Positions 20,122-60,228 of a DNA stretch of 64,000 nucleotides are shown one piece after another (position 1 is the first letter of the stretch; each line of letters opens with the position of its first letter). Source of the stretch: Podarcis filfolensis (lineage: Eukaryota); assembly GCA_964270895.1 (NCBI GenBank), contig OZ185447.1; one strand, 5' to 3'. The notes beneath the pieces are model-generated. The model searched no databases. It saw nothing but the letters and a program-made list of their open reading frames with translations, and was not told the DNA's origin. The position numbers and the translations under genes were made by a program.

Positions 20122-20331
20122 CCTGTATTTAATGTGAGATCCAGGTCAGAATGAATGCAAGCAACCTCCTTCCTTCTACATATTTGCAAAAGCTCATACA
20201 GCATTACATATGTTTGGCTATTTATCTCTATGGCGAACTTATGGAAAACTGGATTACAGCAGTGTATTACTTACTATTACATGTGTTTGCACTTCTTTAT
20301 TGGAAATCTTTGCTTCCTGTGCTAACATTGG

Positions 20332-36190: not shown

Positions 36191-36667
36191 TGTCGGGGTC
36201 TGGGCAGAGGACGAATGGTGGAGACCGCCTCCCCATCCTGACCTTCCAGGGAGGAGGAAGAGGAAGACAGTATAGATCTACAACAGGGGTTTGAGGGAGG
36301 TCGCAGCTCAGAGGCAGAAGAGGGGGAAAGTTGGGAAATCATGGGAAAGCCAGAGCAACACCTGGCTGACATGTTGTCATTAGAAAGCATTCCAGACCCT
36401 CCATCTCCCAGAACCCGGTGAGCCTTAAAAGTAGGAGAGCAAAGAGCTCAGAGGGCACTTAGCAGCACCTGTAGAGGAGATGATGACAAATGAAGAAGTA
36501 GGAGAGAAGGGGGTGGAGCTTCACTCGGGACAAGGCCCTTATCCAAGAGGCTGGGTTCTATAGCCTCTCTGTGCAAAGACTGAAATGAAAAAGGACTGTA
36601 AGAAACTTTTCCTTGTCTTTATAATTTCCTGGGCAACCAGCCAGGAGTCGCTGACAGCATCCTGACA
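36191..36667 (+). mobile_element. Solo LTR, copy A of the acidic-ORF family
   Basis: TGTC...TGACA ends; TSD caagt/caagg; colinear with 59770-60228. Confidence 0.82.
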
Positions 36668-37830
36668 CAAGGTGAGAAAAGCAACTGCATCCTAAAATTC
36701 CTTCTTGTTTTAACCCCAACTGCATGCATGTATGTGCAGCCACAACTGAGTCTTTAAGTCCCACCACCAAATCTCATTAGAGCTTTCTAACTTAGAGCAA
36801 ATTAAACACATACACACACCCTATCCAACTTACACTTGGAGGGTTGTAGTTGTGGTGGGGTTACATTGTACTGGTGTGTTGGAATACACTACTTGTTTAG
36901 GTTACTTGTAGCCAGTCTGATGTAATGACACAACATCATGTCGCTATACTGACTAGGATCCCACAACAAGGCAAAATATAGGATAGGCCTAGAATAGGAG
37001 CCGTGAGTGATGGAACACTAGGGCTGGAGCAGACATGGGAAACACTAAGTTTCCAAGGAGCATTTTGCAGTTTTAAAAGCCCCCCTTTTGTCCTGAAAGA
37101 TTATTTAAGGCTGTAATCCTGCTACATTTCCAAGGGAGGTCAGTGGGACTAGCTTCTGAGTAAACAAGCTTAGACTTGTCCTACATTATGTTCAATAAGG
37201 GAATCGCTGGTGGAAGTCCAGAGGCATCCACTGCGACCCCGACCCCCCAAATCCCATGCCAGTTAAGACACCAGTCTGTGTCAAGAGTTAGCTAATGCTC
37301 TGGTTGCCATGGAGACTTTTTTGTGGCAGATAAAGCTGAGAGATACCAAGCTGATTAAAACACTAGGATAATGTACCTTCTGCTGCTTAATTAAGGACCA
37401 GCAACATCTGAACACACTAAAACCCCTGGATTCTGAACATCATCCATATTTAAGTGCATCTTTATATATATAGAGCCATAGCCAACTGACAAGGAAAGAC
37501 AGCATATGCTTGTAGGATTATGCTACGGATAAGATAAATTACCCTGTGTTTGGATGTGCTACTGCCTCACTCTTGCCATTTATTTCCTATTCAGTGAGTT
37601 CTGTCAGATTAGAATTCACAAGAAATCTCCCTCTGAGGGACTTGGCATCTGGGATTTGAATGTTGTAAAGGAATCATTTAAAATTATGCTCAGAGCTGGA
37701 TTTACAATTATGCTCAGACAAACCAGAGGTTTCTCAGGTACCTGGCTGGCAACAGTGGCTGGATCTGGACACATCAAATAAGCGTTGCAAACTTTGCATG
37801 AGAAATCGAGTTGGCAAAAATGGAACTCCA

Positions 37831-37863
37831 CAGCGCCTTCTGGTGCCACAGTGTGATAATGCA
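37831..37863 (-). promoter_or_regulatory. Candidate bipartite CTCF site
   Basis: Minus strand reads TGCATTATC-acactgt-GGCACCAGAAGGCGCTG: core with two mismatches plus an upstream TGCAxTxxC-type module. Confidence 0.45.
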
Positions 37864-37926
37864 TGTACAATGCATATAAAACACCTTTTCTTTACCAATC
37901 TAGCAGGTACAGTGTTTACTTGAAGG

Positions 37927-38339
37927 CAGTGCTTTTTTTCCTTAAAAATGTTTAGGGGTACTCTCATTTTGACTCAAGAAAATCACCATTTTATAGTTCA
38001 AATCGAGAAAAATAAATACAGTAAGTGGACAAAAGTACAAAGAACATGCATTACCCATATTGAAATACTGTCCCTCAATAAGGCCAAACTTTCATCAGTA
38101 AAACACCACACATCCACATTCCACACTGCTTCACACATTAAACCCTCGCTTCCGTCTGAGACACAGGAAACACCGTGACAAGAAATGAGGCTGCCATCAG
38201 GGGTAGCAACGGAACTGACGATTAACCGTGCTAGAGAAGAAACTAAAAAATTTAAAATTGTTCATTTCTTCTCCTGTTAGATTCACAAAATGTTTAGGGG
38301 TACGCGTATCCCTGCGTCGCCCCCAGAAAAAAAGCACAG
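37927..38339. mobile_element. hAT MITE, long form
   Basis: TIRs cagtgcttttttt...aaaaaaagcacag; TSD cttgaagg/tttgaagg. Confidence 0.8.
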
Positions 38340-38436
38340 TTTGAAGGACTAGGGTTCTTCCAAGGGGAGAAGGACTAAGCTACATTAACAGCCAAATCAC
38401 AAAGTGTACTTTTTATTGAACTCTACCACTTCTGGA

Positions 38437-38799
38437 TGGACATGGGTGGCGCTGGGGGTTAAACCACTGAGCCTTGGGCTTGCCAATCAGAAGGTCGGCA
38501 GTTCGAATCCCTACGACGGGGTGAGCTCCCGTTGCTCGGTCCCTGCTCCTGCCAACCTAGCAGTTCGAAAGCACGTCAAAGTGCAAGTAGATAAATAGGT
38601 ACCGCTCTGGCAGGAAGGTAAACGGCATTTCCGTACGCTGCTTTGGTTCGCCAGAAGCAGCTTAGTCATGCCGGCCACATGACCCGGAAGCTGTACACTG
38701 GCTCCCTCAGCCAATAAAGCGAGATGAGCGCCACAACCCCAGAGTCGGCCACGACCGGACCTAATGGTCAGGGGTCCCTTTACTCCTTTACCTTTACCT
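38437..38799 (+). mobile_element. Sauria SINE (Squam1)
   Basis: Same family as 19050; 13 bp TSD taccacttctgga (38424-38436, 38800-38812). Confidence 0.9.
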
Positions 38800-38994
38800 T
38801 ACCACTTCTGGACTGCAGATAAGGCAAAGGCACCATGTTTAAATTCTCTGCTGTTTAACAAACCTCCTGTCCACACAGAAAACTAGCATGTTTAGGATAA
38901 AGCTTCAGGCTTCCTGCTGCTTTCTGTCTAAAGTCCAGAATGCTTTTGTGCAGAGAAGGAACTGTCCAACTCCCAACCAAGGAAGAATGGCAGA

Positions 38995-39340
38995 TAAAGT
39001 GAATGGACTCTGCAGAAATGGCAAAATTAATGGGAAGAATAAGGAATCAAGAAGAAATAACGAAGAATGGGGGGAAATTGTGGATTGTCTTAAAAACTAT
39101 TGCAAACAACTAAACACATTAGCAGGATTAATCTAAAAACAAGCAGTTAAAAGGTTGATTTAAAAGTAAACTAGAGAGTAACTAAGTAAAAGGTGTAAAG
39201 AGATGCAGTTTTGGAAATGATCTTATACGAAACTACAGAAGGGAAGGAGGGAAGTCAAACTGAGTATGTACTGATCTACATGTGATTATTGTTAAACTGA
39301 AAACTGAAAAATAAAATTTATAAAAAAATAAAAGAAAGTG
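38995..39340 (+). mobile_element. L1-clade LINE extreme 3' end
   Basis: GRIRNQEE...EWGEIVDCLKNYCKQLNTLAGLI*, then 3'UTR and an A-rich tail. Confidence 0.6.
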
Positions 39341-40361
39341 TTATAGTTGCAGAACAGAAGAAGAGCCTGATGTGTCAGGTCAATGGCTCATCTAGCCTGG
39401 CATAATATTCTTATGGTGGCCAACCAGTTGCCTGTGGGAAACCAGCAAGCGGCGCATGAGCACAAGAACATGCTCCCCTTCTGTGGTTTCTAGCAACTGG
39501 TATTCAGAATATGCCTCTGATCAGGAAGACTATAGCTAACATGGCTAGTAGCCATTGATAGCCTTGTCATTCATGAATTTGTCTAATCCTCTTTCAAATC
39601 CATCTAAGTTTATTTATTTATTTTATTACATTTATATCCCACCTTTTTCTCTAAGGAACTCAAAGTTCTCCTCTTCCTCATCAGTGCTGTAAAATGAAAG
39701 TTCCTGGACTCACTTGGATTGCCAAACAAAGACACCAGCCAAGAAAATAGGAGCAAAGCAGCAGCCAGTAGGCCTGATCTTTATTCAAAAGACGGTTGCA
39801 ACAGAACTTCCACCCATCACATGGGAGAAGCAGAATGAAGCCCTGAACAAAGGGGTGCTCCCTCTTTTACAAGTTTTCCCTTTTTCCCATGAACACCTCA
39901 GGTGACGCATCATGCATACATCACAGATGCATCATTCATATGTCACAAACAGGGAGGAGTTTTCTGGTAGAAACCAGTTTGTCAGGTTTGCCCCCCAACC
40001 TCCCTTGCCCACCACCACACACCCATCAAGTGATACAACAGGAATATTTACATTTCCCTGGTTTTCCCAGTCAGGTAATCACACTCCTTTGTCCTGACTG
40101 AGGACCCAATCCATTCCTGGATGGTTTGCCATTGTCCATGGGATGACTGCCTGTCTGGCACCCATCTGCCAGGATGCCAGTGATTATCTCTTGTGCAAGA
40201 GGCTGCTGTGTACGTGATCCCAGCTTTCATGGATTATGGCTGCCCACATCCCAGACACTCCCCCCCTGTAGCCATTCCTTTCCTGAATAGAACAAAGTTG
40301 GTGGAAATCCATACTGGAGCGATTTTATATGACTTTCTAAAGTTTTCCCAGTGAGCCAGTA

Positions 40362-41195
40362 CAGTGGTACCTCGGGTTACAAACATTTCAAGTTATGTTT
40401 TTTCGGGTTACGAACGATTTTAACCTGGAAGTAAGTTGTCTGAGCTCTCGGAGGCCTCGCCGCTGCCTGAAGCCAAGCCCCGACATCCGCAGGATGCCCA
40501 GCAGGTTGCATCCCAGCCCCAAAGTTAGGTAAGGAACACTTCTCTAACAAAGACCAAGAGCAGTGAAGCTGTTAAGAAAACAAAGGTGAGCCTGGGCCGA
40601 CAAGCTCTTGACCAACCCTTGCCCCACCCCCAGCCGTAGCAAGATGGGTGGCACCTAGCCAGGTAAACCCACCTATCCTATGGGAGGTGGGGGAGTGTAA
40701 AATTTTGGGATTCTGCAAGGGATTTGGGGATTTGTTTATGTGAGCCTGCCCTGTGCCTTTGCCTCTGCTTTGCTGCTTCATTTGGGGGACTTCTGGGGGA
40801 CTCTGCCTTCTGCCATTGTTTGGGGGATCGTGTGGGGTTTGGGGTTCAGCTACTGGTTGACTGTGTGACTGCAGAAATGGATAAAAGCCCCCCATCCAAA
40901 CAATCATCAGTGCATGTAAGAAAAAAAATTAAGTTAATTTTTTAATCTACAATGCTATCTTATTTATTTTATAGTACAGTACACTGATTATTGCCTTCAT
41001 TTTATGGATCAATGGTCTCGTTAGACATTAAGATTCATGTTAAATTGCTGTTTTAGGGGGTGTTTTTCATTTTCTGGAACGGATCAATCCACTTTTCCAT
41101 TACTTTCAATGGGAAAGTGCGCTTCAGGTTCAGAACGCTTCAGATTAAGAATGCACTTCCAGAACCAATTAAGTACTTAACCTGAGGTACCACTG
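40362..41195. mobile_element. Tigger-like non-autonomous Tc1/mariner element
   Basis: ta|cagtggtacctcgggtta...taacctgaggtaccactg|ta; interior 40440-40880 unidentified. Confidence 0.75.
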
Positions 41196-41399
41196 TACAT
41201 ATCAGTGAATTGTTGCATTTGGTAATGTGCAGCAGAGGCCCTTTGAATAGAGATAGGAAAAAACTGTGATGAAGTGTTTTGTGGGGACATTTGCAGGAGT
41301 GATTGTGTTGAGTTTGGTAGTCGGTGTGTGTGTGTATGATGTCTGCTGGAGGTCCAACCCCCCCCCCCGCACCTTTACATAAATTCCTGCAACAATGCA

Positions 41400-41545
41400 A
41401 TCACCACAACAACCGTGTGAGGTAGTTTAGGCTGAGAGGCAGTGACTGGCCCAGAGTCACCCAATGAGCTTCAGGACCAAGTGAGGATTTGAACCTTGGT
41501 CTCCCAGATCTTAGTCCAACATTCCAACCACGCTGCCATTCCAGC
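41400..41545 (-). mobile_element. MIR/CORE-like tRNA SINE
   Basis: acaacaaccgtgtgaggtag...gactggcccagagtcacccaatgagc...atttgaaccttggtctcc. Confidence 0.65.
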
Positions 41546-42952
41546 TGGTAGCCATCACTGCCTCCTGTGAGAGCGAAGGCCATAATTTAAACTATGTGCT
41601 GCGTGATGAAGTACTTTCTTTTATTAATCCTGAATCTTCCAACATTCAGCTTCATTGAGTATCCACAAGTTCTAGTGTTGTGACAGAGGGAGAAAAACTT
41701 GTCTCTCTCCACTGTCTCCATGCCATGCATCATCTCATAAACTTCTATCATGTCACCTCTTTATCACATTTTTTCCTAACCAAAAATCCGCAAATGCTGC
41801 AGCCTGCCCTCATTGGGTAGTTGTCCAGTTCCCTTGACGCTGCTCTCCATGATGCAACTGATGAAGAGCAATGCCCAGTGGCTGAGTGTGGGCTAAGGGC
41901 CCAGGTTCAAACTCCAGTTAGAAGCCTCTTTCTTTAAGGCCGCTAAATAATTTTTGGCAAGGTGCAGAATTGGAGTTGGGCTCAGGGGACTCGTGGTCTG
42001 AATCTATATGAGACTGGTTCAGATGCATTCATATGGTCAAGACTAAGGAAGATGCTAGGGCTGTCCAGGGGTCAAATCCAAAAGAGTATGCCAGTCAGAA
42101 GCAATTTGTTAAGAGGAGCAAAAACAAAACAAAAAAAACGAGCAAGAGGTCCATCACAAACAGGATGAGGGGAAGAAACTCTGAAGAAAGGTTCCACAAG
42201 CAGGAGAGAGAGTAAGTCCTGATGTCTCCTGCTCTTGCTCAAGTACTTAAGAGTTTTCTAAATGGAAGAGTGTCAGCTTCCTTTCCACTCTGGATTTCTT
42301 TCTCGTTCATCTCAGAATCAAGCCGGGAGCACTATATGTACATGGGGCTGTGAGAGCATTATTTGGGGGCAGTGGCTGCCAAGAGTTGGACTCCAAGCTC
42401 CCATCAGCCTCAGCCAGATTAGCCAATGGTCAGGGATTGTGGGGTTGTACTCCAAGAACATCTGGAGTGCACTGTGCTGGCTACCCATTTTGTAAACGTT
42501 GACTGAACCTGGCAACCTTACTGCATGTCCACAGGCATATGCTGTCAGGCAAACAAGAAACATTGGGTGCTGGACATTTCTTGTGCAATTTAATCCTTTT
42601 GTGTTTAAATAACTAGTACAGTAACAAGATGACCTTGGCTTTCAGCCTAGTGTTTCTTAGATACAGTGGCTGAAAATGACTTTCCTATAGTTAAGGCCTG
42701 TAAATAAAAGCTAAAGCTAAGCAGCCGTTTCTCAAATAAGGGAGATGTCTAAAGCTTGCTTTGGATTTATTATTTAGGCCCTCGTGATTTTGTTGTGAGC
42801 ATTAACTTTTAAACAGAATTAATGATCAGCCCCCAAATTCATTGTTCATCTCATTACCTTCCGTTCTGCAGTAGCCACCTGCAAGCATACGGTAACTGCA
42901 GTCAGGGAATGGCTCTTTCTGCCGAGAGATGGATGTGGAGAAAACAACAGTA

Positions 42953-43143
42953 CAGTGGAACTGTTCTTAAACCAAGGTGCACTTCCCCTAATGAAGCCTC
43001 CCACTGTCGGTGCCCTTCCACCATTCGGATTCCGTTCTTAGACTGAGGTAAAGTTCTCAAACCAGGACACTATTTCCAGTTTTGCGGAGTTTGTAAACTG
43101 AATTGCTCTTAAACTGGACTGTTCTTAAACTGAGGTACCACTG
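42953..43143. mobile_element. Tc1/mariner MITE
   Basis: ta|cagtggaac...tgaggtaccactg|ta. Confidence 0.75.
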
Positions 43144-43794
43144 TAAATGCAACTATGGGAACAAGAAGCTACTGCGTCAGGAAAAGAAGAAGTACCCAAC
43201 TGTTCATGGAAAGGAAGAGGCTAGAATGGGGATAGCACTGGGGAAAACCTAGAGTGACACCAGACATCTGACTGAATGTAAGCATACAATACTGCACAGT
43301 AGCTGAAGAAATCCACTGCTGTGAAACTAGGTTTTGTCTCAACAGAGACCATGTCTCATAAGAGGGAAGGTCCCAGCCTCAGACTGCCTTATTATATAAA
43401 GCCTGAGCAAGCTGATATGGAGAAAAGAGAAGAGCTGTGGTTCAGTCTGATGCATGTGAAGAAGCTGAGCAGGAGCAATTGCAGTACTGGGAGGTGGTGG
43501 CCCAGGGAAATAGATGAAGGACCAGCAAATCCTGATCTGCAAAAGAATTGGTGGGGTTGTCGTCTTTTCTGCTGGTCCTGCTCCTTTGCCTTTAATAACA
43601 ATCAGAAAATTGGCTGAGGATTCTCTTTTTCACCACATCACTATGCTGCTAATTTCCTGCAAGTCAGGCTGCTCTTAGAGTTACAGGAGTAAGACCTGAA
43701 TAAAATTAGCACCAGCAGCAGCAGCAGCAGTAGTGGAAATTTCCCCACCCAGCATCTAATTTCCTGTGGAGGGAAATGAGATGGAGGGAACAGA

Positions 43795-43968
43795 GGAAGC
43801 TTCCTTATACTGGGGCTCGACCCTTGCGCCATCTAGCTCAGCATTGTCCACACTGACTGGCAGGGTTTCAGGCAGGGGAAATCCCCAGTCTGACCTGGAG
43901 GTGCCATTGGGGATTGAACCCGGGACCTTCTGTGTGTAAATCAGATGCTCTTCCACTTAGCAGTGGCC
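43795..43968 (-). mobile_element. tRNA-derived SINE resembling Squam3
   Basis: gggattgaacccgggaccttctg (B box, reversed) and a ccatctagctcagcattgtccacactgactggcag body. Confidence 0.7.
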
Positions 43969-44824
43969 CTTTCCAGGGAAGAACCTGTTTGCAAAGTGTG
44001 CAGGGCTGCCACCTCTTCACTGGGCCTATTTCTCTGCCCTGGTGAATGGCACACAAAAAATTTACCAGGGGAACATTCTCCACGAGATAACCACGTTGTG
44101 AGTTGGGTGGGGTGGGGGAGTGTTAGCTGGCATGATACCTGAGTCCCTTTTACTTCCAGGGTCCTGGATCCAGCAAGGGTTGAAATCTAATGGAGGATTC
44201 CATTGTTGAACTAGTCAGGCCAGTTTCTTTGTGAGAGAATGGCTCTGTGCCAGAGGCCTTTGCCCTCACCTGGCTGGCAGTTCGAAGACAAAAGCGAGGG
44301 CAGTTGTGTGAGAGCTGGGCTAGCAGCAGGCAGAAGCTGAGAGATTTGCTTGATTATCTGCTAGAATCCAAGGCTGTGACTATGGAAAAAGCGAGACCTT
44401 TTGCGGTGTTAATGCTGTGAGCTCCTCCATCTTAGGCTCAGGTTGTATTGAAACTACTGCCTCCTGCGTTGTTTTTGCTGTGTTAGCAGCAGTGGATTGA
44501 CCTCCCCAGGATGCAAGCCTGGGCTGCCCAAACCACAAGACCCCCCTCTTGGCCTCGCTGATGTGGTCCAAAGAGAAACAGAGCAATACATTTGGCACCA
44601 GCTGGGCTGCCGGAGTTGCCGGAAGGAGGTCTACAAGATGCTACCCAACCGTCTTAACGACTCCACTCCAGATTTGTGTCACTTTACTCCTGAGCCTTTT
44701 CTTCTCCCAAAGATGTCCCACAAGGCAGCGGGTATAGATTTTTCCTTAGGGTTTACTCCTGTAGCTTTTCTTATGAATGTGTATAGCCACAAGGCAGTGG
44801 AGGTTTAGGATGTATATACAGTGA

Positions 44825-45133
44825 CAGGGCCTTCTTAAGTATATCCGGCACCGTCATGCAAAGATCCCTCTGGCGGGTGGCCCCCCCATTTCCTTTTTAC
44901 AGCGCTGCCGGCAGCTTTGTGGGGCTGAAGGAGGTGGGCAGCGGCTAGAGGGCGGCTCCTCCAGCGGGGAAGAGGCGGAGGCTACGGGCACGGTGCTGCT
45001 TCAGTGAGGCGGCTGAGGGTGGCAAGCTGATGCCGGGAGGTGCCATGCCCAGCCTCTGCCTCTTCCCATGCGCCCTCCAGAACTTGGCGCCCTGGTGCCC
45101 TGCGCCACTTGCCTCTATGGGCAAGACGCCCCT
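44825..45133. mobile_element. GC-rich hAT-type MITE
   Basis: Ends cagggccttctt...aagacgcccct; TSD not found. Confidence 0.5.
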
Positions 45134-45136
45134 CTA

Positions 45137-45362
45137 AAGTAGTACCTCGGGTTAAGAACTTAATTCGTTCCGGAGTTCCGTTCTTAACCTGAAACTGTTT
45201 TTAACCTGAGGTACCACTATAGCTAATGAGGCCTCCCGCTGCTGCCGCGCCGCCGGAGCACGATTTCTGTTCTCATCCTGAAGCAAAGTTCTTAACCCAA
45301 GGTACTATTTCTGGGTTAGCGGAGTCTGTAACCTGAAGCGTCTGTAACCCAAGGTACCACTG
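45137..45362 (-). mobile_element. Tc1/mariner MITE, same family as 37-259
   Basis: Reverse-complement match to 37-259; TA flanks. Confidence 0.85.
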
Positions 45363-47329
45363 TATGTGTAAATAAACCATGTATCACAAAACACCAAAGT
45401 CTCCACTGCCCATGGATTCGGTTCACCTGGAACTCAGAGATGGAGCGGGGAGTGTGACAATAATAATTCCACCTGAATAAGTGACAGTAAGAGCTCCAAC
45501 TATGTCAAGCTCTGTGAAAGTTACAAGAGTAAAAACTAAAAAGTGCCACTTTAGTCCTTTGTTGCATGCACAATCTTGCCTTGGTGCCATTTTGTTTCTC
45601 GTAAAGTAAACAGAGAATCAGAAATAGCATCAGATGGGGAGATACAAGTGAAGACATCACTCTGTGCCAGCAGACCCTGCTGCTGTTCAGATATGGCACA
45701 GCAAGCAGAGTCAGCATCAGAACCTGGCATCTCTGGGCAGCTGCCAGGGAGAAAAGTGGATGTGCCACTGCTGCTGTTCTTGGGATCTTTCTGCTAGACA
45801 TCCGGATCAAATAGTGGCCCACTATTATAATTACCCACAATGCCAGTGCACTAGAGTGATGCTCTGTCATGGGCATTGTGGGTAATTTTGAGTGTGGGTG
45901 GCTCACAACCATCTAGCATAGACTGTATTACTGCTCCTACTCCTGCTTCTGCTGTCATCTGCCATCAAATAGGGGAGCCCACTCTCCCACCTGCTCTGGA
46001 GCTGGCTCTGAACCTCAGCTGCCAGTGACACCTTGATTTCAATGAGGCTGCTGCAGGAGCACAAAATTTTATTGTTTCTATCACAGTTATAATTTTAGAT
46101 AGGTCCCAAAGCATTAGAGAAGTCTAATATGTTTTCTAACACTACAGCTCATGGCAAAGAATTCCTGACTACCTGTGCCATTCTTGTTGAAAGCTTAATC
46201 TTGACCTTAAGAAACTGTGCTGAATTTATGGGAGTTATATTCTTGCTGAATTGTTTCCTAAATACATTCTTGTGTCAGTAAAGACAAAGAGCTTTGTCTG
46301 TGGATTATGTTTAAATCCTGCTGTAATATGTCAGTCAGATCTCGCAGGAAATGAGATTGAGTAATGAAAAAAGTGCACAGAGCTTCTGTTAATCCAAAAT
46401 GTAAAAAACGTTTTCCATCCCAATTCCCATTGACTCAAAGTATGTTAAAAATTTGGTAATGAAACTGGAGCTGTACAACATCTACATATATAATCACCTT
46501 TCTTTATCAAAGTAGTGTAGGAAACAGTAATGGATTGTGGATTTAATTGCTTGTTTTCAAAGCTTTCCTTGTAAACCAAGGAAGCACTTGTTCTTCCTTT
46601 TCCAGAGGAGAAAACTGGTATAGCATAGAAAGAGCACTCAGAGGTTAGGTACTCTGCAAACTCACCTAGCCCAGGAGAAGAGGAGAAGAAGAAATTGGGG
46701 TTTCCAAACAGGGTTTCTGATGGGAAGAGAAGCAGGATGAGGCCCACCATATTTCCTTCCCTCCCAGGCAGCTGATAGGTGATGATTTTGGCTTTTTATA
46801 ACTGGTACAAGAGTACAACCTCAGTTTTATTGTTCATGTTGAGGCTTGGATGTGGAACTTTTGCATCTAATGATCCAAATGTGGGGCATTTGGAATAGGG
46901 TAACATTTTAGAACAGAACAAGCCAGGTACATCACCTGGTGGGGAATTTGTGTCTTTTCAGTGTGGGATTTTTTGGCACAAGGCACTTTCAGAGTGCCCA
47001 AGAAAATATCATTTATGCTTGCAGAATGCAGGCTTCATTTACTAACATTTCACTGACTAATGGAGATGGGGAAAGAATGGAATGGCAAAGTGGACTGCAG
47101 GCTGAAATTAACATAAAATTGTAGTGCATGATGCTGAAAGCAGGAAGTAAGGATTAATGAAGATATAGAGCACTCTAAAGGTACAACGTAGTGTTACAGG
47201 GCAACTAGGTATCCATGACTCCCTGAGAACACTAATGCAGAGCGGGGGATGGCTGGGGAAAGGATGCTTGACAAATTACCGTACATCTTTGTGAATTCTA
47301 ATATAAACCGACCTTATCCGTACCTCTGT

Positions 47330-47440
47330 TAGGGTTACCATCTGTCCAGTTTTCCTCAGACATGTCCGGGATTCCAAGGGCGAAATCACTATCTGGGTGG
47401 AAATGTTTTTAAAAAACCTCCCAAATGTCTGGGTTTTTGC
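47330..47440 (-). mobile_element. Isolated hAT (Blackjack/Tip100-like) terminus
   Basis: tagggttaccatctgtccagttttcc...gacatgtcc is the reverse complement of the ends at 49504 and 62657. Confidence 0.6.
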
Positions 47441-48859: not shown

Positions 48860-49260
48860 GTTTCTATATCTGATTATTCAGATCCAATACACCCCGCTCG
48901 CAAAAAGCCCCATTCAGACTTTTCCAAAGGCTTCTCCCTCTTCCAGCCACCTGGCGAGGGGGGCTCTCCTTCGGGCAGCAAGGGAGACCCCGCACTCCGG
49001 GCGCGCAGAGGGAGGGAGGCAGGCGGGGCGCGGCGGCCCCTTCCTCCCGGCTTCGCCCGCCGCCCCTCCGGGAGCCCCGGCAGCGCCTCCTTCCTGCGCC
49101 CAGAGCGGGGAGGCCGGGCGGGCGGGCGGGCGGGAGCAGGAGCTCGCCTTCCGGGGAAAGATCCAGCCTGGGGCAGAGTTCCCCTGGCTGAGCCGGAGCT
49201 GTGGTGGGAGGAAGGAAGGAGCACCAAGGCGGGGCAGGAGAGGAGCACAAAACCCCGGAC
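48860..49260. promoter_or_regulatory. CpG-island-like segment with GC boxes
   Basis: Visibly the most CpG-dense stretch outside young TEs; GGGCGG repeats at about 49115-49135; CTCF-like TCGCCAGGTGGCTG on the minus strand near 48943-48956. Confidence 0.55.
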
Positions 49261-49303
49261 ATTTTGCTAAATTTTAAAAATCCACCTGGATAGACATTTT
49301 GAC

Positions 49304-49446
49304 CAGTGCTTTTTTTCTTTAAAATGTTTAGGGGTATCTCATTTCCCTACTCATATTGAAATACTGCCCCTCAATGAGGCCAAACTTAGATTCACAAAAT
49401 GTTTAGGGGTATGTGTACTCCTGCGTCCCCCCAGAAAAAAGCACTG
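49304..49446. mobile_element. hAT MITE, short form nested in the Blackjack-like element
   Basis: TIRs cagtgctttttt...aaaaaagcactg; perfect 8 bp TSD attttgac (49296-49303, 49447-49454). Confidence 0.88.
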
Positions 49447-49509
49447 ATTTTGACCTTAAAAAAAGAGGACATGTCCAGGAAAAACTGGACGTATGGCAAC
49501 CCTAAGGAT

Positions 49510-50630
49510 ATATAGTGAAGGCAGCAAGTGAGCCTCCCTGGGGAGAGCATTCCACCAGCAGGGAGCCACCACAAAAAAGGCCCGTTCTCATGCTGCCACC
49601 CTCCAGGCACACACAGAAGGGCCTCCGCTGACCACCACAGGGTCGGGTTGGTGCATATGGGGAGAGGCAGCCCTGGAGGTATTGCGGTCCTGAGCCATTG
49701 TCACGGTTGGCACAATGCAACACAGTAGCCAGAGTCTTAATTCCCCAAACAGCAGCTTTTTCTCTCCTTTTTGTAAATCTTTTAATATTGATGTATTGAT
49801 TAACAAACCCCGCTTTTCTTTGAAATGATTTGAAGGCAGCTGACAAGAATCAAGTAAAACAATCAAATAAGAACAAAAAAGAAAACCTGTAAGAATTAAA
49901 AAGTTGCAGATGTTAAAACAGTCATCAAAAGGCACACCCCCAAATTTAAAAGTAGAAAAATATCTGCATCCAACGTTAGAAGACCTCCGAGTGCTCCAAG
50001 CAGAATGTAGTTGGGATAGATGCAACCCAGCTCCCAACAGAGGAAGGTCTTTACAAGGCCATTCAACTGGACACAGCTATTGGAAAGGCCTTCTCCTCAG
50101 TTGAGATTCAGGGGTTGCTGGGACACGCAAGAGCGCTTCTGTCGGAGTTATTGATAGGCAGGCAGACTCTTACAGGGAAAGGAGGTTCTCAAGATGTCCT
50201 AGTTCCAAACCTCAGTGGCTTTTATGACTGAGAGAAGGGCCACAGTAATTGTATACCTGCCTAATCTTGCTCTGATTTCTTACCAAGGAGAGCTGATATG
50301 AGGTAGTATGCTGCCATTTCCTTTGACTTTAGTAGAACAGAGTTTTGTATTGTATTTATTTGTATACTGTCCTATAGTCACAGGTCTCAGGGCAGTTATA
50401 ACATAAAATCACAATATAAAAGTACAAAATACATAATAAAAACAATAATGACCTGATATCCCCCCCCAACACATATTAAAAGGGCACTGAATGTCAATCA
50501 GTCAAAGGCCTGGTTAAAGAGGAACGTTTTTGTCTGACGCTTAAACTGTGCAAGCTGAACGTCCCTGGAGAGTGCATTCCACAAACGGGGAGCCATTGCA
50601 GAAAAGGCCCATTATCTGCAGAGTTGGGTG
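49510..50630 (-). mobile_element. Degraded L2 3' fragments (49510-49730 and 50370-50630)
   Basis: GPQYLQGCLSPYAPTR-type motifs and L2 tail sequence (ttaaagaggaacgttttt...gcattccacaaacggggagcc). Confidence 0.6.
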
Positions 50631-53600
50631 TCAACCCAAAGCAGATCAGGCTGTGTAGGTTTTGGGTGCCCTGCTCTAAAAATAAACAATTCAGAAAGGC
50701 AGATAGATCCGCTTGATACATTCAAAGCATCATCCATGTGCATTTAAAGCAGATGACGTCCCCTAAAAAATCCTGGAAACTGCAGCTTCCCCGTCACAGA
50801 GCTACCATTTCCAGCATCCTTTTAAAAAACCTACAGTAGCAGAGAAGGAATATGTTTTGCGCGTCCGGGAGGCTTACAGCAACAGCAAGAGCCAAGAACT
50901 GGAAGAAAATCCTCAATAATGGATGAAGAACTTTTCAGGATGTGAAGCTGGTGATGATACAGTTCAGGATTGAGAAAGCAAAACAAGCAACAGCTGCAGC
51001 CTGGATGTAGGAGCCTCTGACAGATTTCTTCAGCACCTGCACAGCTGTGGATGAAGAAGGGCGGGAAGCAGAAAAGCTATAAGCCTGTGTGCCAGAAGAG
51101 CAGCCAGAAGAACAGGATGAGGCCAAATCCTTGACTGTCTTGAAAAACACTATCTTGGTTTTTCTATTTTATTTCTGGCACTCATGTACCACCTTGTGGA
51201 TGGTTCACAGATTCCTCTACAGGCCGTGTACCCTAGAGGCAAGACCCTGCTGAGCTGCGATTCTTCAGACCCTCAGTGGTGGGGGGCTCCACCACTGTAG
51301 GGGAATTACCCATTTAGGGGACCATACCAAAGGAATAAGAATCATTCACATTATTTTCTCAAGGCCTGAAAACATAGTCAAAATTATTAAGCCACCCGAA
51401 TGCACACTGACATCCTAGTCTTGTATATATGCAAGGAGTTATTGTACACGATAAATTATTTAACCCATCTGCAGTCTGAGCAGTTTTGGCCACTTCATGG
51501 GCTATTTATGTGAGCGGGAAGCAGGCATGTTAAAAAGCTTGTTTCTGTTACTGCCTGCTTACTTTTACGTTTCTATTACAGTAACATAAATCTACAGGAA
51601 TACCTGGGAATTAATGTGATTATATCCTACTCCATCCCATAGGCTCAAGAGAGGCTTACAAGCTGTTTTTCTAAATGTTAATAGAGCTGTCTCCAGGGGG
51701 TTCACAGTTTAAGAAAACGTGTTTTTTTCTGGCATAAAAGAGGCTAAATTAAATAAAAAATGAGATTGTGAACACATATTATTTTTTTAAAAAACCCCAA
51801 ACCCAAACAACACCCAAACCAAACTGTAGCCAACCTACCTAAAAAGCTACCTGAAGCACAATGTTGTTTGCAGGCAGGCAAAAGCCTAGTTGTTGTTGCA
51901 GCTCCATTCCAGGCGTAGTCCTGATGGTGTCCCTTGAGGTCCTGCCAGGAAGCAGGCAGATCTTCATCCTTAGCCTCTAGAATGTCCCACCACCAACTAT
52001 GAATTTCCTAGAGTGTGTGAGCCATCAGGGAATTCATCCCCTGTTGCTCATTACAGGTCCTAGTATCCAATATTTTAAATTCACAAAAAGTGATGGGGAG
52101 GGGGGAAAGGAAGATAACAAATAAAGCCCACAATCAGAAGAATCATGTGGTGCAGCTTTTGCTGAATACATATTTGTTTGAATGTATCTGTAGATAGATA
52201 CACACCCACCCACCCTGTCCATTCAAAGCTAGGCTATTAGAATGGTTCTGTGCTTAGCCTTTTGTCTGCCACATCGTTTTTTATGTGCAGACGTACAAAC
52301 TCTCCACCTGGAATCTGCATTGTCTGGGTAGGGGAGTGAGGCTCTGTTCCACCTGAGTAGATTTCAGAGTCAGAGGAAGGATTTTGGATTAGAAGTGCTA
52401 AACGAAAAAGCTATACATTCACCACCAGTTGCCCAATGGATGATCTGGTTTGGTGGTCTGAGGACCTTTTATGTACAGTAGAAGAAATTACTTGCTCTTC
52501 TGGTTTTTGTACGTGACATGGATAAATGGATGGCAACTTTAGCAAACCAAAAGCACATGATATGTGTATTTGTTACAAATCTGGACTTCACTTGGAAAAA
52601 CTCTTGGATTCCTTCCTTCTTTTCTGTGGAATATGATCCCCCAAAATCCTTATCCACACAATTTCTTCTCCCCTCTCTTTCCCTTCTCTCAGTTGTTTGG
52701 TGTTATTTCCCCCCTCCTCTTTCTTTCATGGTGTTCATGTTTTAAAATACACTCGGTCTGCATCTTTGTAGAGTTATAAAATGTTGAATAAGCCACTTAA
52801 AAGAGAAAGATGACAAAGGACCATTAGCAGAACATAAGAAGTGCTTTTTGCTATATCAGACTAAGCTCCACTGAACCTAGCATTCATCTTTCAACAGCAT
52901 GTTCCCCTGGGAAGTTCAGAAGCAGAGCATAAAAATGGTGCCTTTCCCCTTTTGCTTGCCCCCCCCCGCCCCATGGTACTCACACTGCGTCTAAGCATGG
53001 ATGAGCCATGTAACTATTTTTTTCTCTGGCTGCACACCATGATGCAATTGTTTGGTGGCAATTCTAGATGTGAAATTCAGGATGGGCAAAATCATTATTA
53101 TTACCGTTTTCCATTTCATTTCTATACCACTTTATATTTTTAAGAGAAGAACCTCCAAACGGTTTACATGAAAACATGAAAACATCAAATAAAACAACCC
53201 AAAATAAAGCATTGCAGAAGAAAATCAAATATAAAGTATATATTCAAAGCGACATAACTAACAGAAAACTAAAATACTATCTTAATGATTTCAAAATAAG
53301 ACATAAAAAAGGAGGTTCATGGTGGGCAGTGGCTGTGGAAGATGGGGCTCGATGAGACCTGGTGTCAGGCAGAGAAGCAGAGGGACTTCAAGATGACGCT
53401 AATGTTGTACCTGTCATGTTGCTTCCACAGATACAGCTCCTACTTCAACAATTCTCCACATTTCCCCTCCCCAACCTTAGGACATCTGCTTATGGTTTAG
53501 GCTTCTTGGCATATATGTGCAGATTTGTACATCACCTGGGTGTGCAAGAGGAAACTCAACTAAGTTTCATTCAGAGTAGTCCTACTGAAATTAATAGACC

Positions 53601-53659
53601 TTAGCCATGTTTTGTCATTTCAATGGGTAAAACTGCCAGCCTCATGGGATGTCACAACC

Positions 53660-54152
53660 TGTCAGAGACATGGGAAGAGGCAGACTCGGGAGATGAGGAA
53701 TTACAGTCACAGTCAGAGTAAGAATTGGTTAGTTTGGGTCCCACTTCCTCCAGAGTTTCCAGCGGCAGATAGAGAAGTAGATTCAGAAGGCTTGCAGCAG
53801 TCGGGGGGGGGGCAGGGAGAGAAACAGATGGCCTTGAGGGGGCTGCTATGCAACCAGGAGGCAGCATTTAGAAGACTCTTCATCTGAGAGTGGAGTAGTC
53901 CATCCACCCTCCCCCTGCTCCAGGAGGGCTGAAAGGGTTAAAATGCAACAGAAGTGCAAGGGAGGGAGGATGGGACATTGGTGCGCATCCTGCTGTGGAA
54001 GGGGCAGAGACTCAGAGTGAGCAACCCGTAACCAAGGGCAGATGGCTCAGTGCTGCTCTCTCTGTGTTAATTGTAAATAAACGTACCACAATCCTGCCAG
54101 AGGCCCATTAATTCTTATCGGAGCTTGCTTGTGTCTGCCTGAGATCCTGACA
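53660..54152 (+). mobile_element. Solo LTR, copy C (divergent relative of A and B)
   Basis: TGTCAG...CTGACA ends; AATAAA near 54075. The flanks caacc and tgacc both derive from cgacc by CpG decay. Confidence 0.7.
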
Positions 54153-54960
54153 TGACCCTGGCCTCAAGCTCAAAATCAGAGAAGGATGAGCTGACCATGT
54201 CAGGAATGGTATACTGCCTGCTGAGGAACTGGAATGGGTTCTCGAGGTTAGTGGTCGGGGCACCTGTGCAACGTGAGCCAGGTCCCTTGCAGATGTCTTC
54301 CTCCTAGCCCATGTCACCTGAGGAATCAAGAACCTCCTATACTTCACCATGGCACAGGGGGATCACCAGAAGGCAGGCCACAGAAAGGAGGTGAAGCACT
54401 CACCTTCAGGCCAGTGGGTTGGTCCTTTCAGGCGAAAGGATGGAGGTTGGTTGGACTAAACTGGAAGGAGGGACTCTTAAGACTTCACTTCCATCCTTTG
54501 TTGGAGCACATTGTTCATTTGGAGCTTTCCATGGTGCTGAATCATGGGTTTCTCTGCTGTAGATGGATTACAATTTCTCCGATCAGGGGAACTATTATTC
54601 AGAACATGTGTTTGAGGGCGGGAAGCTAATCAAAGTCAGAGACAAAAAAAAAAAAGCATCTTGCAGCAAGAACCAAAGTATAAATCTCACAAATGGACCA
54701 GTGTCTGGTGGCTAGAGCTTCCCTTTCACAAAAAGAAGAAAGAAGGAAGCCTCCAAGCGGCACAGAAAAAAGTGGTTTATTAGTCCCCGTGTGTTTCAAA
54801 TAGAGACTCAGCAGGGGCACAATGTTCTGTATTCATGCTGCAAAATAATTACTACAGGGTGTCTTTGTATATGCAAAGTATATGCACTTAGAGTCAGGAT
54901 GTCTCTCCAGCCTCACCTCATCTTCCCCTTAGACTTAAGACCTAAACAATGGTGAATGCA

Positions 54961-55611
54961 GACCTTTCGAATCTTAGGAGTCATTCCTCTGGTTATCCAG
55001 ATTTGGTCAATTCTTGTCCAAGTCATTTTAGCTTCAGAGAAGAAAGTCCCCTCTCTACCTAGGGGGTTCTTAGTTCTCCAAGTGTCAATTAAGTCCATAT
55101 TGTCTGTCATTTCAAAAAAGGTTTTCGGTAGTCTTCCATCTTTTGTCACTACCTGTCTTTCAGATTTATCCATGTTTGTCGACACTACGCCATTCATATC
55201 TCCCATCAAAATGATGTTATAGTCCATAAAATCCAACAATGTCTCATGCAGTTTCTTGTAAAATTCCGATTTCCCCTCATTTGGTGCATAGACTCCTACT
55301 ATCAAAAGTCTCTCTCCTTGAAATTGTATTTCAATTGCCACAAATCGTCCCTGTTCATCTTTAAAGATAAATTTTGGTGATAATTTTTCTTTTGCATAGA
55401 TCACAACCCCTCTCTTTTTAACTTTGTCTGATGAAATAAATTCTTGGCCTAATCTTTTATTTATCAATACTTTCCTGTGGAGTCTGGTTACATGGGTTTC
55501 TTGCAGACAAATCAGGTCCAATTGTTCCTTTTTCAATAAATGAAAGACTCTTTTCCTCTTGTCCGGGGAGTTTAGACCCCTAATATTCCAAGTTAATATC
55601 TGCAGAGACAT
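54961..55611 (-). CDS. L1 ORF2p apurinic-like endonuclease domain, C-terminally truncated; TE-derived
   Basis: TWNIRG, CLQETH, GVYAPN, GDMNG, RIDQIW present; the sequence breaks before the SDH motif. Confidence 0.85.
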
Positions 55612-55618
55612 GATGTGA

Positions 55619-56317
55619 TTATTTTGCAATCCCTCCAACTGCTCCCTGAAGCTGTTCCTGTTCTGACAGCAGTGTCTCTTTCTCTGGTTTATCCAATCCC
55701 AAGGGGTATCTTCCTGGGTCTGGTGCTCCCGATCTCGGTGCTTTCAGTTCTTTTGTTTCGGTCTCTTTTTGCAAGTCTTCCTCGTGATCTCTCAGGAACC
55801 TCAATTTCTCTTCCTCTGATCTTATCTTTACTTTTTTCCCTCTGAATGTAAACGACAGACCCTGAGGAAATTCCCACCTGAATAAAATATTGTTTCTTCT
55901 TAGCAGACCCACTAGGTCTCCGTAGTTAGCCCTGAGATCCAATAAATGTTTAGGGATGTCTTTAAAAATTTCAGTTCTTGAACCCTCTATTTCCAGTGCT
56001 TTCTGGTAATGGAGACTCAATATTTTGTCTCTCTCCTCTTTCGACTTAAAAACAATCAAGCAGTCTCTCACTGTGTTCTTCCTTCTGACTCTTCCAAGTC
56101 GGAAGGCACTCACTATCTTAAATTCTTGTTTTCCTGGATCAAGATCCCAAAAGTCCTCAAATTCCTGTGTAAGAAATTCTCTCAAGTCCCCTTCTTCCGA
56201 TTCTGGTACCGCTCTGACTCTCAGATTAGCCTGTTTTTCCTTAAGTTCGATCATAGAAAATTGTGACCCATAGTCCTCAAGTTGTTTATTAATTGGTGGT
56301 ATCCTTTCTTCTACCGC
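55619..56317 (-). CDS. L1 ORF1p fragment (coiled-coil end, RRM, CTD); TE-derived
   Basis: Frame open from 56317 to TAA at 55619-55621; NLRVRAVPE, AFRLG, IFKDIP, FRWEFPQGLSF motifs. Confidence 0.8.
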   Translation of the reverse strand, partial: AVEERIPPINKQLEDYGSQFSMIELKEKQANLRVRAVPESEEGDLREFLTQEFEDFWDLDPGKQEFKIVSAFRLGRVRRKNTVRDCLIVFKSKEERDKILSLHYQKALEIEGSRTEIFKDIPKHLLDLRANYGDLVGLLRRNNILFRWEFPQGLSFTFRGKKVKIRSEEEKLRFLRDHEEDLQKETETKELKAPRSGAPDPGRYPLGLDKPEKETLLSEQEQLQGAVGGIAK

Positions 56318-56499
56318 CTAAGTTGGCACCCATGGTTTTGGAGACAGCCTGAGATTGGATGTGATGCTAAGCTAAACAATGGTTTCGCTCTCAGCAGCAC
56401 AAGCAGGAGCAGTGAAGCAGCTAAGAGTTTCACCCCATGCACCAGCATGCTACACATTCACTTTTAAACTGTAGTTAAGTGGAAAGGATCTAGAGGTCT

Positions 56500-57360
56500 T
56501 AGTAGATTACAAGCTTAATATGAGCCTGCATCAACAGAAGCATAGTACCCTGAACAAAGGAAGTAATAGTATGACTCTATTCTGCCTTGGTCAGACCACA
56601 CCTGGAATACTGTGCCCAATTCTGGGCACCACAATTTAAGAAAGATGTTGACAAGCTGAAACGTGTACAGAAGAGGGCAACCAAGAAGATTATAAGGGTC
56701 TGGAAACCAAGCCTTATGAAGAATGGTTGAAAGACTGGGCATGCTTAGTTTGGAAAAGAAAAGAATGAGAGGAGATATGAGAGCCATTCCAAACTAAGCA
56801 TGCCCAGTCTTTCAACCATTCTTCATAAGGCTTTCATAGATGCTTAGCTGAGATTCCTGCATTGCAGGGGTGAAGTGAAGGACATGAGGCAGGAGTTGGT
56901 AATGTGGGTGAGCTGGGCACAGGCAAGCTGCCAGCTAGCTCTGTAGAGGCTCCTTTTATTGCCACAATATACAAATCCAGGCAGATACATTTTGGGCTGT
57001 GATCTTTACACATCTTCCATTCCCAAGAACGTGGGGTGGTACAAAGTTATTTTGGCACCTGTTTCCACCACGTCATTTCCCCCTTGCACAATGTATGACA
57101 AAGGAGACAAAGGTCACAGACAGAGCATGGCAGAATACTAAGACCGCAAGAGGTTAGACAGAGGGGAAGATGTTCAGACAGCTGTGGATTTATCTGTGAG
57201 GGGGAGTGTGCTCCGCACCCCAACGTCATGTGTGCAGACAGCTGAGGCTGCCCGTGGGTGGGAGTGTGCTCCAGAACCCAGTGATCATTCCTACACAGGG
57301 GTTGGACTAAATGAGCCTTGGTGTCCCTTCCAACTCTACAGTTCTGTTTTATGATCTATG
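56500..57360 (+). mobile_element. Rearranged CR1 3' fragment with a fold-back inversion and a later insertion
   Basis: CR1 ORF2 motifs at 56515-56785, a 47 bp inverted copy, and a CR1 tail split between 56834-56871 and 57296-57360. Confidence 0.8.
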
Positions 57361-57999
57361 ACCCTAAGTGTGACATGTGAACCAGGACACTGACTTAAAT
57401 GGGGACTGTAAACGTGGTTAAATGCCTCCCACTGACATCCACCGAATATAGAAGTGCTTCAAAAACCTTGGCAGGATTGTGTCCTGTCTTTGGATTTTAA
57501 GAGAACATTTCTGTATTCTGTTTGAACTATTTTTTACATGCCTAGCAAGACACCACACTGCTTGCTGGTGCTTAGGTTAATGACTGAAACCTAAATATGG
57601 ATGATGCTTTAACTCTACTGCCTTGCAAGAAATGAATTTTCAGTATATATTCCCAGCTCCATGGCAGATGTTCAGTAAGCCTGGTCGATGAACTGTATTA
57701 TGCTTTAAAATGCAGTGTATTAGATTAGCACTCAGTCCTATAGATGTGCATAGCTGCAATGATACAAAGAATGGTTTGTTCCAGTATAGCTGCAGGGGTG
57801 TCATATGTGATATGAGTGGCGCAAATCTGTCAGGCTTTGCTGCCTATCCGCTGAAATCCCATTTTAACGGATTTACTGCAAATATACTGGGTGTTGGGCC
57901 ATCTTGGTTATTTTATTTATTTATGACATTTGTACACTGGCTGATGACAGAAAGTCTCTTGGGCAGCTTAAAATAAGTACATATAAAAACACTCCAAGT

Positions 58000-58400
58000 A
58001 CAAAAAGCCCCATAGAAAGCATATATAGCACAAGTATTACAATAAAACCAAACCGTTCTCAACCCCAAAAGTAAAAACTGAGATGCCCAAGCTACACAAG
58101 TTATTTAAAATGTCTAGGTGAACAGAAAGCTTTTCACTTGACATCAAAAACCTTCACAGAGATGCTTCCAGGCCCTTCTTCCTGGAAAGCCTGCCCCATA
58201 GCCGGGGTGTCACTGCCAGCAGAAGCAACAACTTGTGTGGTTGCCCCACTTGGAGCAGCACTTTCAGAAAAGAACTTCATGTTCTGGTGGGTACATATGG
58301 GAGAAGGTGGCCTTTCAAGTAGGTGATCTTTTAGTTACGGCTAAAAGTAGCATTTGAAATAGGGCCTATAAATGGACTGCAAGCCAGTGCAGCCGACAGG
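58000..58400 (-). mobile_element. Degraded L2 3' fragment
   Basis: aaagcttttcacttgacatcaaaaa...gggtgtcactgccagcagaagc...atttgaaatagggcc; L2 C-terminal pattern reversed. Confidence 0.55.
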
Positions 58401-59769
58401 CATAAAATAGAATAAATAAATAATAAATAGAATAAATAAATAAATTAGGCAAAGTGAATCCATCACCTCCAGCAACAGATGCCACAGGGCAGTGATGGAA
58501 GCCTTCTGGTTTTTCTTCCGAAGCTCTGAGGCATCTCTCTCAGCTGGAAGACAAAGATGTATATACATATAGATGGTCCTTCTCTTCCCCAATGCTGATG
58601 CCTCCCCTGATGCTGCTTTCAAAAGTGAAAACAGAAGCAGTGCTACTGGGGATGGGGCGGTAATCTCGTGCAAGTGTCATGAGGGCTGCACTGCAAGGCC
58701 TGTTCCTGAAAGGAAGTACCAGAGACCAAGAACGAGGGGAGTGTTGAGATGCTAGAGGTGTCTCCTTCTCATTTCAGGCTAAGTGTGAAGGATGGCTGGA
58801 TGTGCCTCTTCCGTCCATGGAGCAGCCACACTACTGGCGCTCTCACCCATCACTGGACCCCAAGGCAAGTCTTTGCACCAGGGGCGGGGAAGAAGGGCTT
58901 GAGAGAAGGGCGGAGGAAGGGGTTGATCAGGTTGCTTGAGCCTCCTCAAACAGACCCATCAAACTTCAAACTTTCCACTCAGGGGGTTTAGATACTGGAG
59001 GACACTTCTTGGTTCATTTTCAGGCCAGTTGGCTCATTCTTTACCCAAATGCATCCCAATGTAGCCCTTATTGATGTGGTGTTTGCATAACAGGTAAGCA
59101 ATGACCAACTCCTTGGGAGATGCATTGTTTGCCATATTATGTAAACACACCTTCAGGAAGGACAACGTAAGTTGATTTTTTAAACACTAATTGTAAATCT
59201 GTGTGTCACGAGGGCTCCAAAGCATTGGTTTATGCTGTGCCTGATTCATTGGTCAGGCCATTTCTCATACCAATAAGCCTCTTCTAGGCAAAGGCCATTC
59301 TAGGGGTGGGGAACAGGATCTTGCTGATGGGACAGATCCTGAACTTCCCCACACCTTGTGAGCCAGTATGACAGGTTAGGCAGATGGTGCGCCTCACCTG
59401 TCAATCACCTGGCATCATCATGACAGCAGTTGAGCCAGCTTCAAAGGAAAGAATTGGAAGTGGGGCTGCCAAGAGGTTGTATGGCAGGGCTGCCATATTC
59501 TGAGGAGCAAAAAAGAGGACACATTTGCCGACATCTACTTCTAACTACAGATCACTATGACATCTCTCATTCTAAATACTATATGTAGGCTATAGGAGCT
59601 GTGATATATTGCTACTAGCAGTGTTATTAACTTTCGACAACAAAATAATAATAATACAAACAATTGAATTGGCTTTAATCGAATAAGTAACTAATTGTAA
59701 AAGTAAATGTGCTCTAATTACAAAAAAATAGAACATGTGTAGGCTATATACATTGGTAGGCTATATGAA

Positions 59770-60228
59770 TATCAGGGACTGGGCAGAGGAGGAAGAGGAA
59801 GACAGTATAGATTTACAGCAGTGGTTTACGGGAAGCCACAACTCAGAGGCAGATGAGGGGAAAAGTTGGGAGATCATGGGAGAGGAGGAGCAGGCAGAGC
59901 CGGAGAAGCAACCGGCTGATGCATTGTCATTAGAAAGCATTCCAGACCCTCCAACTCCCAGAACCCAGCGAGCCTTAAAGTAAAAGAGCAAAGAGCTCAA
60001 AAACAGAGGGTACTTAGCTACACCTGTAGAGAAGAGGATGATGATGACGAATGAGGAAGTGGGAGAGAAGGGGGTGGAGATTCACTTGGGACAAGGCCCT
60101 TATCCAAGAGGCTGGGTTCTATAGCCTCTCTGTGTGAAGACTGAAATAAAAAAGGACTGTAAGAAACTTTGCCTTGTCTTTATATTTTCCTGGGCAACCA
60201 GCCGTGAGCTGCTGACAGCATCCTGACA
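59770..60228 (+). mobile_element. Solo LTR, copy B of the acidic-ORF family
   Basis: T(A)TCAG...CTGACA ends; perfect 5 bp TSD atgaa (59765-59769, 60229-60233); AATAAA at 60145-60150. Confidence 0.85.

Follow-up and report, generated by a model that had tools for sequence, protein, structure and literature searches.

Solo LTRs of a lizard Gypsy chromovirus probably preserve relics of a selected integrase tail encoded in the 3' LTR

Coding sequence overlaps the U3 region of the 3' long terminal repeat (LTR) in nef of human immunodeficiency virus (HIV), sag of mouse mammary tumour virus (MMTV) and bel2 of foamy virus. Among plant chromoviruses, Pol of CRM group A is described as entering the 3' LTR, where the CR motif is encoded (passages of PMC3059260 and PMC3605345), and the Reina-clade elements Bingo1-4 and Bingo7 as carrying a chromodomain ahead of the polypurine tract (PPT) with an open reading frame (ORF) extended into the LTR (PMC3605345, in part). 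CRM elements are described as tRNA-Met primed, their CR motif having replaced the chromodomain, and self-priming, with the primer at the 5' end of the RNA, as the feature that marks the Tf1/sushi group (passages of PMC6317226 and bioRxiv 10.1101/2022.12.06.519325, the former for both statements). The disordered C-terminal half of Ty1 integrase is reported to end in a nuclear localization signal (NLS) and a short tethering segment (a passage of PMC10050235). Here, we examine a 64,000-nucleotide stretch of the lizard Podarcis filfolensis (GenBank assembly GCA_964270895.1, contig OZ185447.1; hereafter the window), in which two solo LTRs, A and B, share an acidic reading frame. We consider it probable that A and B derive from a lizard Gypsy chromovirus with a selected integrase tail of ~110 residues, likely serving nuclear import or chromatin tethering.

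The two LTRs and their frames occupy the following positions in the window.

36191..36667, plus strand: solo LTR A, family 1, of a Tf1/sushi-type chromovirus, with a 5-bp target-site duplication (TSD) at 36186-36190 and 36668-36672
59770..60228, plus strand: solo LTR B, family 1, with TSD ATGAA at 59765-59769 and 60229-60233
36192..36493, plus strand: relic of the Pol (integrase) C-terminal tail in U3 of A, interrupted by a frameshift and a TGA
59771..60054, plus strand: relic of the Pol tail in U3 of B, with a 5' deletion and a frameshift near 59978

A, B and a third copy, C, are solo LTRs that have decayed; the relic reading frame in A and B is genuine. Both start with TG/TA-TC and finish with ATCCTGACA, and their flanks match at 4/5 (CAAGT/CAAGG) and 5/5 (ATGAA/ATGAA) positions, respectively. 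The frame of A has a frameshift near 36240, an in-frame TGA at 36419-36421 and its stop codon at 36491-36493, and that of B has a single frameshift and a stop codon at 60052-60054. Internal indels of 15, 6 and 6 nt separate the two copies, and B lacks 44 nt near its 5' end relative to A (45 nt when copies such as L007 are the reference). No ATG occurs at the 5' edge of the frame in either copy. A sequence-only reading of the window had noted the independent insertions with their own TSDs, the stops, the three indels, the one frameshift per copy, the TGA in A and the entry of the frame without an ATG, all of which we recovered; the 44-nt loss in B is additional to it. It further proposed that the internal region and the 3' LTR share this frame, which would encode a distinct accessory protein comparable to Nef, Sag or Bel2. 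Searching the 1.5-Gb genome with B yielded 2509 first-look candidates for family 1, of which 40 were scored and 30 fetched; a TSD match of at least 4/5 was present in 20 of these 30 loci, whose start had partly been chosen by that match.

We show that the frame in family 1 continues upstream into integrase. A parent search using a purine tract joined to the LTR start led to loci on contig C8, where the LTR is preceded by an integrase C-terminal region and a chromodomain in frame with the LTR peptide, in a decayed copy with stops inside the chromodomain and tail. The family 1 chromodomain corresponds to Pfam PF00385 (E 1e-9, protein P0001), a domain also present in three sister elements. It shares its frame with the LTR peptide in loci L054/L055, L056 and L068, the last two being closer relatives of A and B that show the same continuity. 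At L103 an integrase core lies ahead of an LTR 84% alike to an A/B-type copy, and L262 holds a family 1 piece of reverse transcriptase (RT) and RNase H.

A protein query spanning the chromodomain-LTR junction gave 150 listed matches. Among 24 chromodomain loci, a set rule placed the PPT/LTR junction in 16 and found none in 8; 12 of the 16 junctions were in frame with a linker free of stops, a count biased toward in-frame matches because the query itself spanned the junction. Young sister families give independent support. One of their members, L093, has two LTRs 97% alike, the TSD GTATG and 1297 open codons, the last 109 of them within the LTR, and its Pol (P0002) is ordered RT, RNase H, integrase, SH3_Tf2-1 and chromodomain. 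It is a two-LTR element with an ORF across the PPT into U3, as the sequence-only reading had anticipated. In another search, within a sister family, 10 of 150 matches belong to 1374-codon frames, one of them interrupted by a TGA within the match, and in families 2 and 4 the frame likewise continues from integrase into the LTR. Codon position 1 falls on LTR base 2 in each family examined, as expected for read-through. None of the listed data sets holding the sequence is recorded as RNA. Contigs of four presumed-RNA runs cover internal and LTR parts, with no listed piece spanning the junction, and give no evidence either way. Overall, the LTR frame is almost certainly the C-terminal tail of Pol, in the order integrase, chromodomain, linker, PPT and ~100-120 codons in the 3' LTR.

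This continuity bears directly on a separate accessory protein, whether cut off by the element's protease or translated from a spliced RNA. The position in U3 resembles that of nef and sag, and a flexible acidic linker could contain a cleavage site, but intact elements read from chromodomain to tail with neither a stop nor a frame change and with no start codon of the tail's own, and the codon phase at the LTR edge is the same throughout. We therefore regard such a protein as quite improbable; at sequence level the frame is continuous with Pol rather than a separate U3 ORF with its own start. The genes nef, sag and bel2 are separate retroviral accessory genes, whereas the lizard tail terminates Pol of a Gypsy element. 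The description of the protein as unannotated stands in so far as the tail is unnamed, but automatic Podarcis muralis gene models in UniRef already hold the family 3 tail as part of Pol. One further P. muralis model, a phospholipid-transporting ATPase (P0006), ends in the family 3 tail peptide, either as an annotation artefact or as an exonised LTR.

The parent elements are Ty3/Gypsy chromoviruses of the self-priming Tf1/sushi type (V-clade) and not endogenous retroviruses (ERVs), which settles the choice between Gypsy and ERV that had been left undecided. In families 2, 3 and 3b, the primer-binding site (PBS) is complementary to the element's own LTR over 10-11 nt and lies 2 nt from the LTR end; the PBS and the self-primer site in the LTR show a paired change between families 3 and 3b. 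Across nine full-length pairs, four have the 10-11 nt match, two a 7-nt match at the same place and three none. The family 1 PBS was predicted from the LTR, and 4 of 6 matches to its pattern were family 1 LTR ends with a 2-nt spacer (reversed control: 9 matches). TG...CA LTRs, a PPT and a short TSD are all present, and the RT-RNase H-integrase order is found in L093 and, for family 1, in pieces only (L262, L103). An ERV origin was ruled out by the self-complementary PBS and by a pol ending in SH3_Tf2-1 and a chromodomain.

The self-primer sites and the poly(A) signal lie downstream of the frame.

36523..36533, plus strand: self-primer site of A, the putative start of R at the transcript 5' end; it is complementary to the PBS in family members with an internal region
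60084..60094, plus strand: self-primer site of B
60145..60150, plus strand: AATAAA poly(A) signal of B, from sequence

By analogy with the Tf1 mechanism, the self-primer site of A would be the 5' end of the transcript. If the group's rule of a primer at the RNA 5' end holds, U3 of A is 332 nt long and the frame occupies 303 of them (~90%). In family 3 the frame would then span the entire U3 and enter R; its last 7 codons overlap the self-primer site. At 36519-36533 and 60080-60094 the site opens in an initiator-like TTCACT, and the 30 nt from the stop to this site show no TATA box.

Selection was assessed from nonsynonymous and synonymous differences in 87 family 1 copies of three subfamilies, after two C8 duplicates and copies shorter than 400 nt had been dropped. 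In the Pol frame, the per-site ratio of nonsynonymous to synonymous differences (pN/pS) was 0.42 for differences fixed between subfamilies and 1.38 for private ones (p 9e-6), a contrast that persisted without CpG codons (p 1.7e-6). The other two frames gave 2.10 and 1.73, and the three frames after the stop gave 1.01, 1.09 and 0.59. The strongest signal fell in the segment from S-L-E-S to E-Q-R-A-Q (fixed N/S 6/11, private 86/28, p 0.0015), which in A is contained in the following feature.

36374..36451, plus strand: most constrained tail segment of A, L-S-L-E-S-I-P-D-P-P-S-P-R-T ... E-Q-R-A-Q, an S-P site followed by basic residues

Indels at the subfamily level were multiples of 3 in 7/7 pairwise comparisons of the tail (~five events) and in 0/2 after the stop. 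Between families 3 and 3b, the substitution ratio (dN/dS) over the last 47 codons was 0.26-0.30, and 1.0-3.6 in the other frames, from 90 pairs that are effectively one comparison. This matches the chromodomain of the same families (0.28-0.33) and exceeds their integrase core (0.08). For the L241 pair the tail end gave 0.97, and 0.33-0.36 in an ungapped recount. The added codons are under frame-specific purifying selection, and the proposal of a selected frame running from the internal region into the 3' LTR is thus upheld by both junctions and pN/pS.

A frame arising as a by-product of purine-rich promoter DNA, with conservation acting on DNA elements (promoter, self-primer or attachment site), deserves consideration here. 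In dinucleotide shuffles of an unbroken natural copy, the frame stayed open in 46/5000 (A/B type) and 31/5000 (C type), rising to 392/5000 for family 3, the most purine-rich sister family, where the overlap with the self-primer site would also constrain the DNA. These values indicate that composition accounts for part of the openness and that the selection tests carry the case. However, the excess of synonymous and third-position change is confined to the Pol frame, and triplet indels occur ahead of the stop and not after it. We consider DNA-level constraint highly improbable as the explanation; purine-rich composition alone, which the sequence-only reading had named as a refuting outcome, accounts for part of the openness but not for the frame-specific selection.

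Several results weigh against the selected Pol tail. At the level of structure, 4 of the 16 junctions were out of frame, in decayed copies, and no unbroken full-length family 1 element was found, only fragments (L084, L103, L258/L260, L259, L262). At the level of selection, the control frame at 0.59 after the stop also reached p 0.019; the closest subfamily pair (A/B type and L033 type) gave no signal (pN/pS 0.96, 19 changes, p 0.55); and triplet indels counted copy by copy were weak in family 1 (12/25 shared, 18/70 private, p 0.048) and without effect for C or family 3. On a nucleotide alignment, the whole family 3 tail gave p 0.17, with only codons 63-101 significant (p 0.03; p 0.35 without CpG codons). 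Frame-specifically low ratios and triplet indels are seen between subfamilies; the closest pair shows no such ratio, and the copy-by-copy indel count is weak. Finally, tails of different families match only in composition (family 1 against 3, probability 0.4%), one of eight tails (L072) has no S/T-P site, and tail-bearing lineages are not grouped in the integrase tree; taken together, these three observations place one conserved function beyond the evidence.

Such divergence would suit a tail that is mainly tolerated read-through, in which selection maintains an open acidic frame, through a shorter 3' untranslated region and avoidance of RNA decay or through solubility, and the motifs have no specific partner. 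Tails of different families barely align (that of family 3 aligns with neither family 1 nor C), the first half changes quickly (families 3 and 3b are 42-45% identical there) and the tail ahead of the PPT ranges from ~12 to 88 codons. Nevertheless, constraint is focused on the S/T-P-basic end, at the level of the chromodomain, which points to a residue-level function, and we judge tolerated read-through unlikely.

The anatomy of the tail is consistent with a targeting role for the selected Pol extension. In eight natural tails of 100-120 residues, the first part is acid-rich in 8/8 and the last 40 residues contain 7-14 K/R, with S/T-P sites in 7/8, mostly directly before the basic run. Pfam returned no family for the A and B peptides and none on the tail, and a single-sequence structure model (mean predicted local distance difference test score, pLDDT, 56.5) shows a folded chromodomain followed by a tail of low-confidence coil and one short helix. 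Judging from composition and motifs, we lean slightly toward nuclear import or chromatin tethering as the function. Pol reads on through the chromodomain and PPT into the 3' LTR, thereby extending integrase. We propose that translation of the tail, within Gag-Pol, would use the 3' LTR copy on the genomic RNA, because U3 of the 5' LTR precedes the transcript start. The acidic part may act as a disordered spacer and the S/T-P-x-x-R-R basic end as an NLS or chromatin-binding motif, possibly switched by proline-directed phosphorylation. S/T-P-x-R is presumably a cyclin-dependent kinase site, and R-R-S-A-R-L, carried by family 2 within S-P-R-R-S-A-R-L, resembles the HMGN nucleosome-binding core. 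Transcription would begin at the initiator-like self-primer site ~30 nt past the stop, leaving U3 free to code, and LTR-LTR recombination would leave many solo copies that decay neutrally.

Evidence on the spread of the tail comes from a profile search of proteins (150 listed, mostly chromodomain matches; 34 inspected, 20 named). Gene models of other squamates (Rhineura, Crotalus and Salvator) have an acidic extension behind the chromodomain, with a basic end in Rhineura and Crotalus; judged from protein models rather than DNA, these extensions would be located in LTRs. Frog and fish relatives (P0092, P0099 and P0133; Ranitomeya, Dendrobates and Cirrhinus) stop ~10 residues past the chromodomain, and a Xenopus model continues for ~45 residues that are not acidic. 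In a tree of the SH3 and chromodomain with frog and fish proteins the base was unresolved, so that a single or a repeated origin of the tail both fit. A weak search of family 1 chromodomain-plus-tail against longer proteins passed none of 249 candidates, and the ESM Atlas gave no usable match for two tails.

The third copy, C, belongs to a distinct family.

53660..54152, plus strand: solo LTR C, sharing the termini and frame phase of A and B, with a relic frame that is acidic, then basic
53901..53951, plus strand: S-P-x-x-R-R motif of C, the sole part aligning to the family 1 tail

Its TSD is poor (3/5). The peptide that the sequence-only reading assigned to C retains the shared S-P/R-R motif, but it falls in two frames with stops between them, and its likeness to A and B is confined to a 21-column motif (hhalign probability 37%, E 3.5e-4; reversed control E 0.04). 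An internal region of the C family was found in 0/30 copies, a pattern search was also empty, and no chromodomain was found for this family in the 30 copies. C is likely the same Pol-tail arrangement in a sister family.

Compared with described systems, the lizard elements resemble the Tf1/sushi group (sushi-ichi, Amn-ichi, Tf1) in the order RT-RNase H-integrase-SH3-chromodomain and in a self-priming PBS 2 nt behind the 5' LTR, and differ in the tail, since sampled frog and fish relatives end soon after the chromodomain. Their LTR termini agree with the Sushi motifs TGTYANR and CNTNACA given in a passage of PMC3601003, which describes a T-rich Sushi U3, mainly from zebrafish, whereas the lizard U3 is purine-rich and coding. 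The Pol extension into the 3' LTR is shared with CRM group A, but the lizard elements keep the chromodomain with the tail behind it and have a self-priming PBS, features that set them apart from that group. The Reina Bingo elements have the same layout in another clade and kingdom, and the passages on them in PMC3605345 say nothing of the extension's length, selection or motif.

Ty1 integrase serves as our working model for tail function, likened by layout and not by sequence, as it belongs to the Copia superfamily and lacks a chromodomain; its tail lies outside the LTR. Among titles and the beginnings of abstracts, we found no such tail in vertebrate elements, which Butler et al. 2001, GyDB, Repbase or Dfam may mention. 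Entry of Pol into the 3' LTR is already known in plants; here it comes with a retained chromodomain and a long tail, in a vertebrate self-priming lineage. A bolder and doubtful extension is that squamate chromoviruses evolved, behind the chromodomain, an additional targeting module encoded by the LTR and convergent with the CR motif of plants, in which a disordered acidic spacer and a phospho-switched arginine anchor would tether integrase to nucleosomes, with ~90% of U3 serving both as coding sequence and as upstream promoter region, and an LTR edge that has slid along the frame during evolution.

Additional observations concern the elements and the window. The motif E-E-W-W-R-P lies ahead of the PPT in L073:1501-1830 and inside the LTR in the A/B family (window 36192-36240), which suggests that the PPT and LTR edge shifted along the reading frame. 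L033, L034 and L045 (C8, 76.29-76.33 Mb) represent one truncated family 1 element repeated three times in a tandem segmental duplication (~98% alike). At L086:3079-6471, a very young element with terminal repeats 99.8% alike and a 711-codon frame is nested in a family 2 chromovirus, and similar frames flank L093 and L092. Contig C19 (43 Mb) holds ~67 of the 150 listed chromodomain matches by eye count, which would fit a non-recombining W chromosome. Elsewhere in the window, 20314-20810 is a degenerate interstitial array of telomere-like CCCTAA units; 54913-56317 on the minus strand is a fragment resembling a LINE-1 ORF1 end and ORF2 endonuclease, the LINE-1 name being our presumption; and 56709-56833 is a perfect 47-nt inverted repeat with a 31-nt spacer that terminates a dispersed repeat.

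Our results describe a vertebrate LTR whose U3 is almost wholly coding and under purifying selection, a layout that passages of the literature describe for plant chromoviruses only. For annotation, many solo LTRs hold an in-frame acidic/basic coding relic able to enter host gene models, and such LTRs are not to be treated as non-coding in dating or selection tests. For the elements themselves, the tail points to an unstudied integrase module, which may determine whether some of a lizard genome's most abundant young LTR families enter the nucleus, or where they insert.

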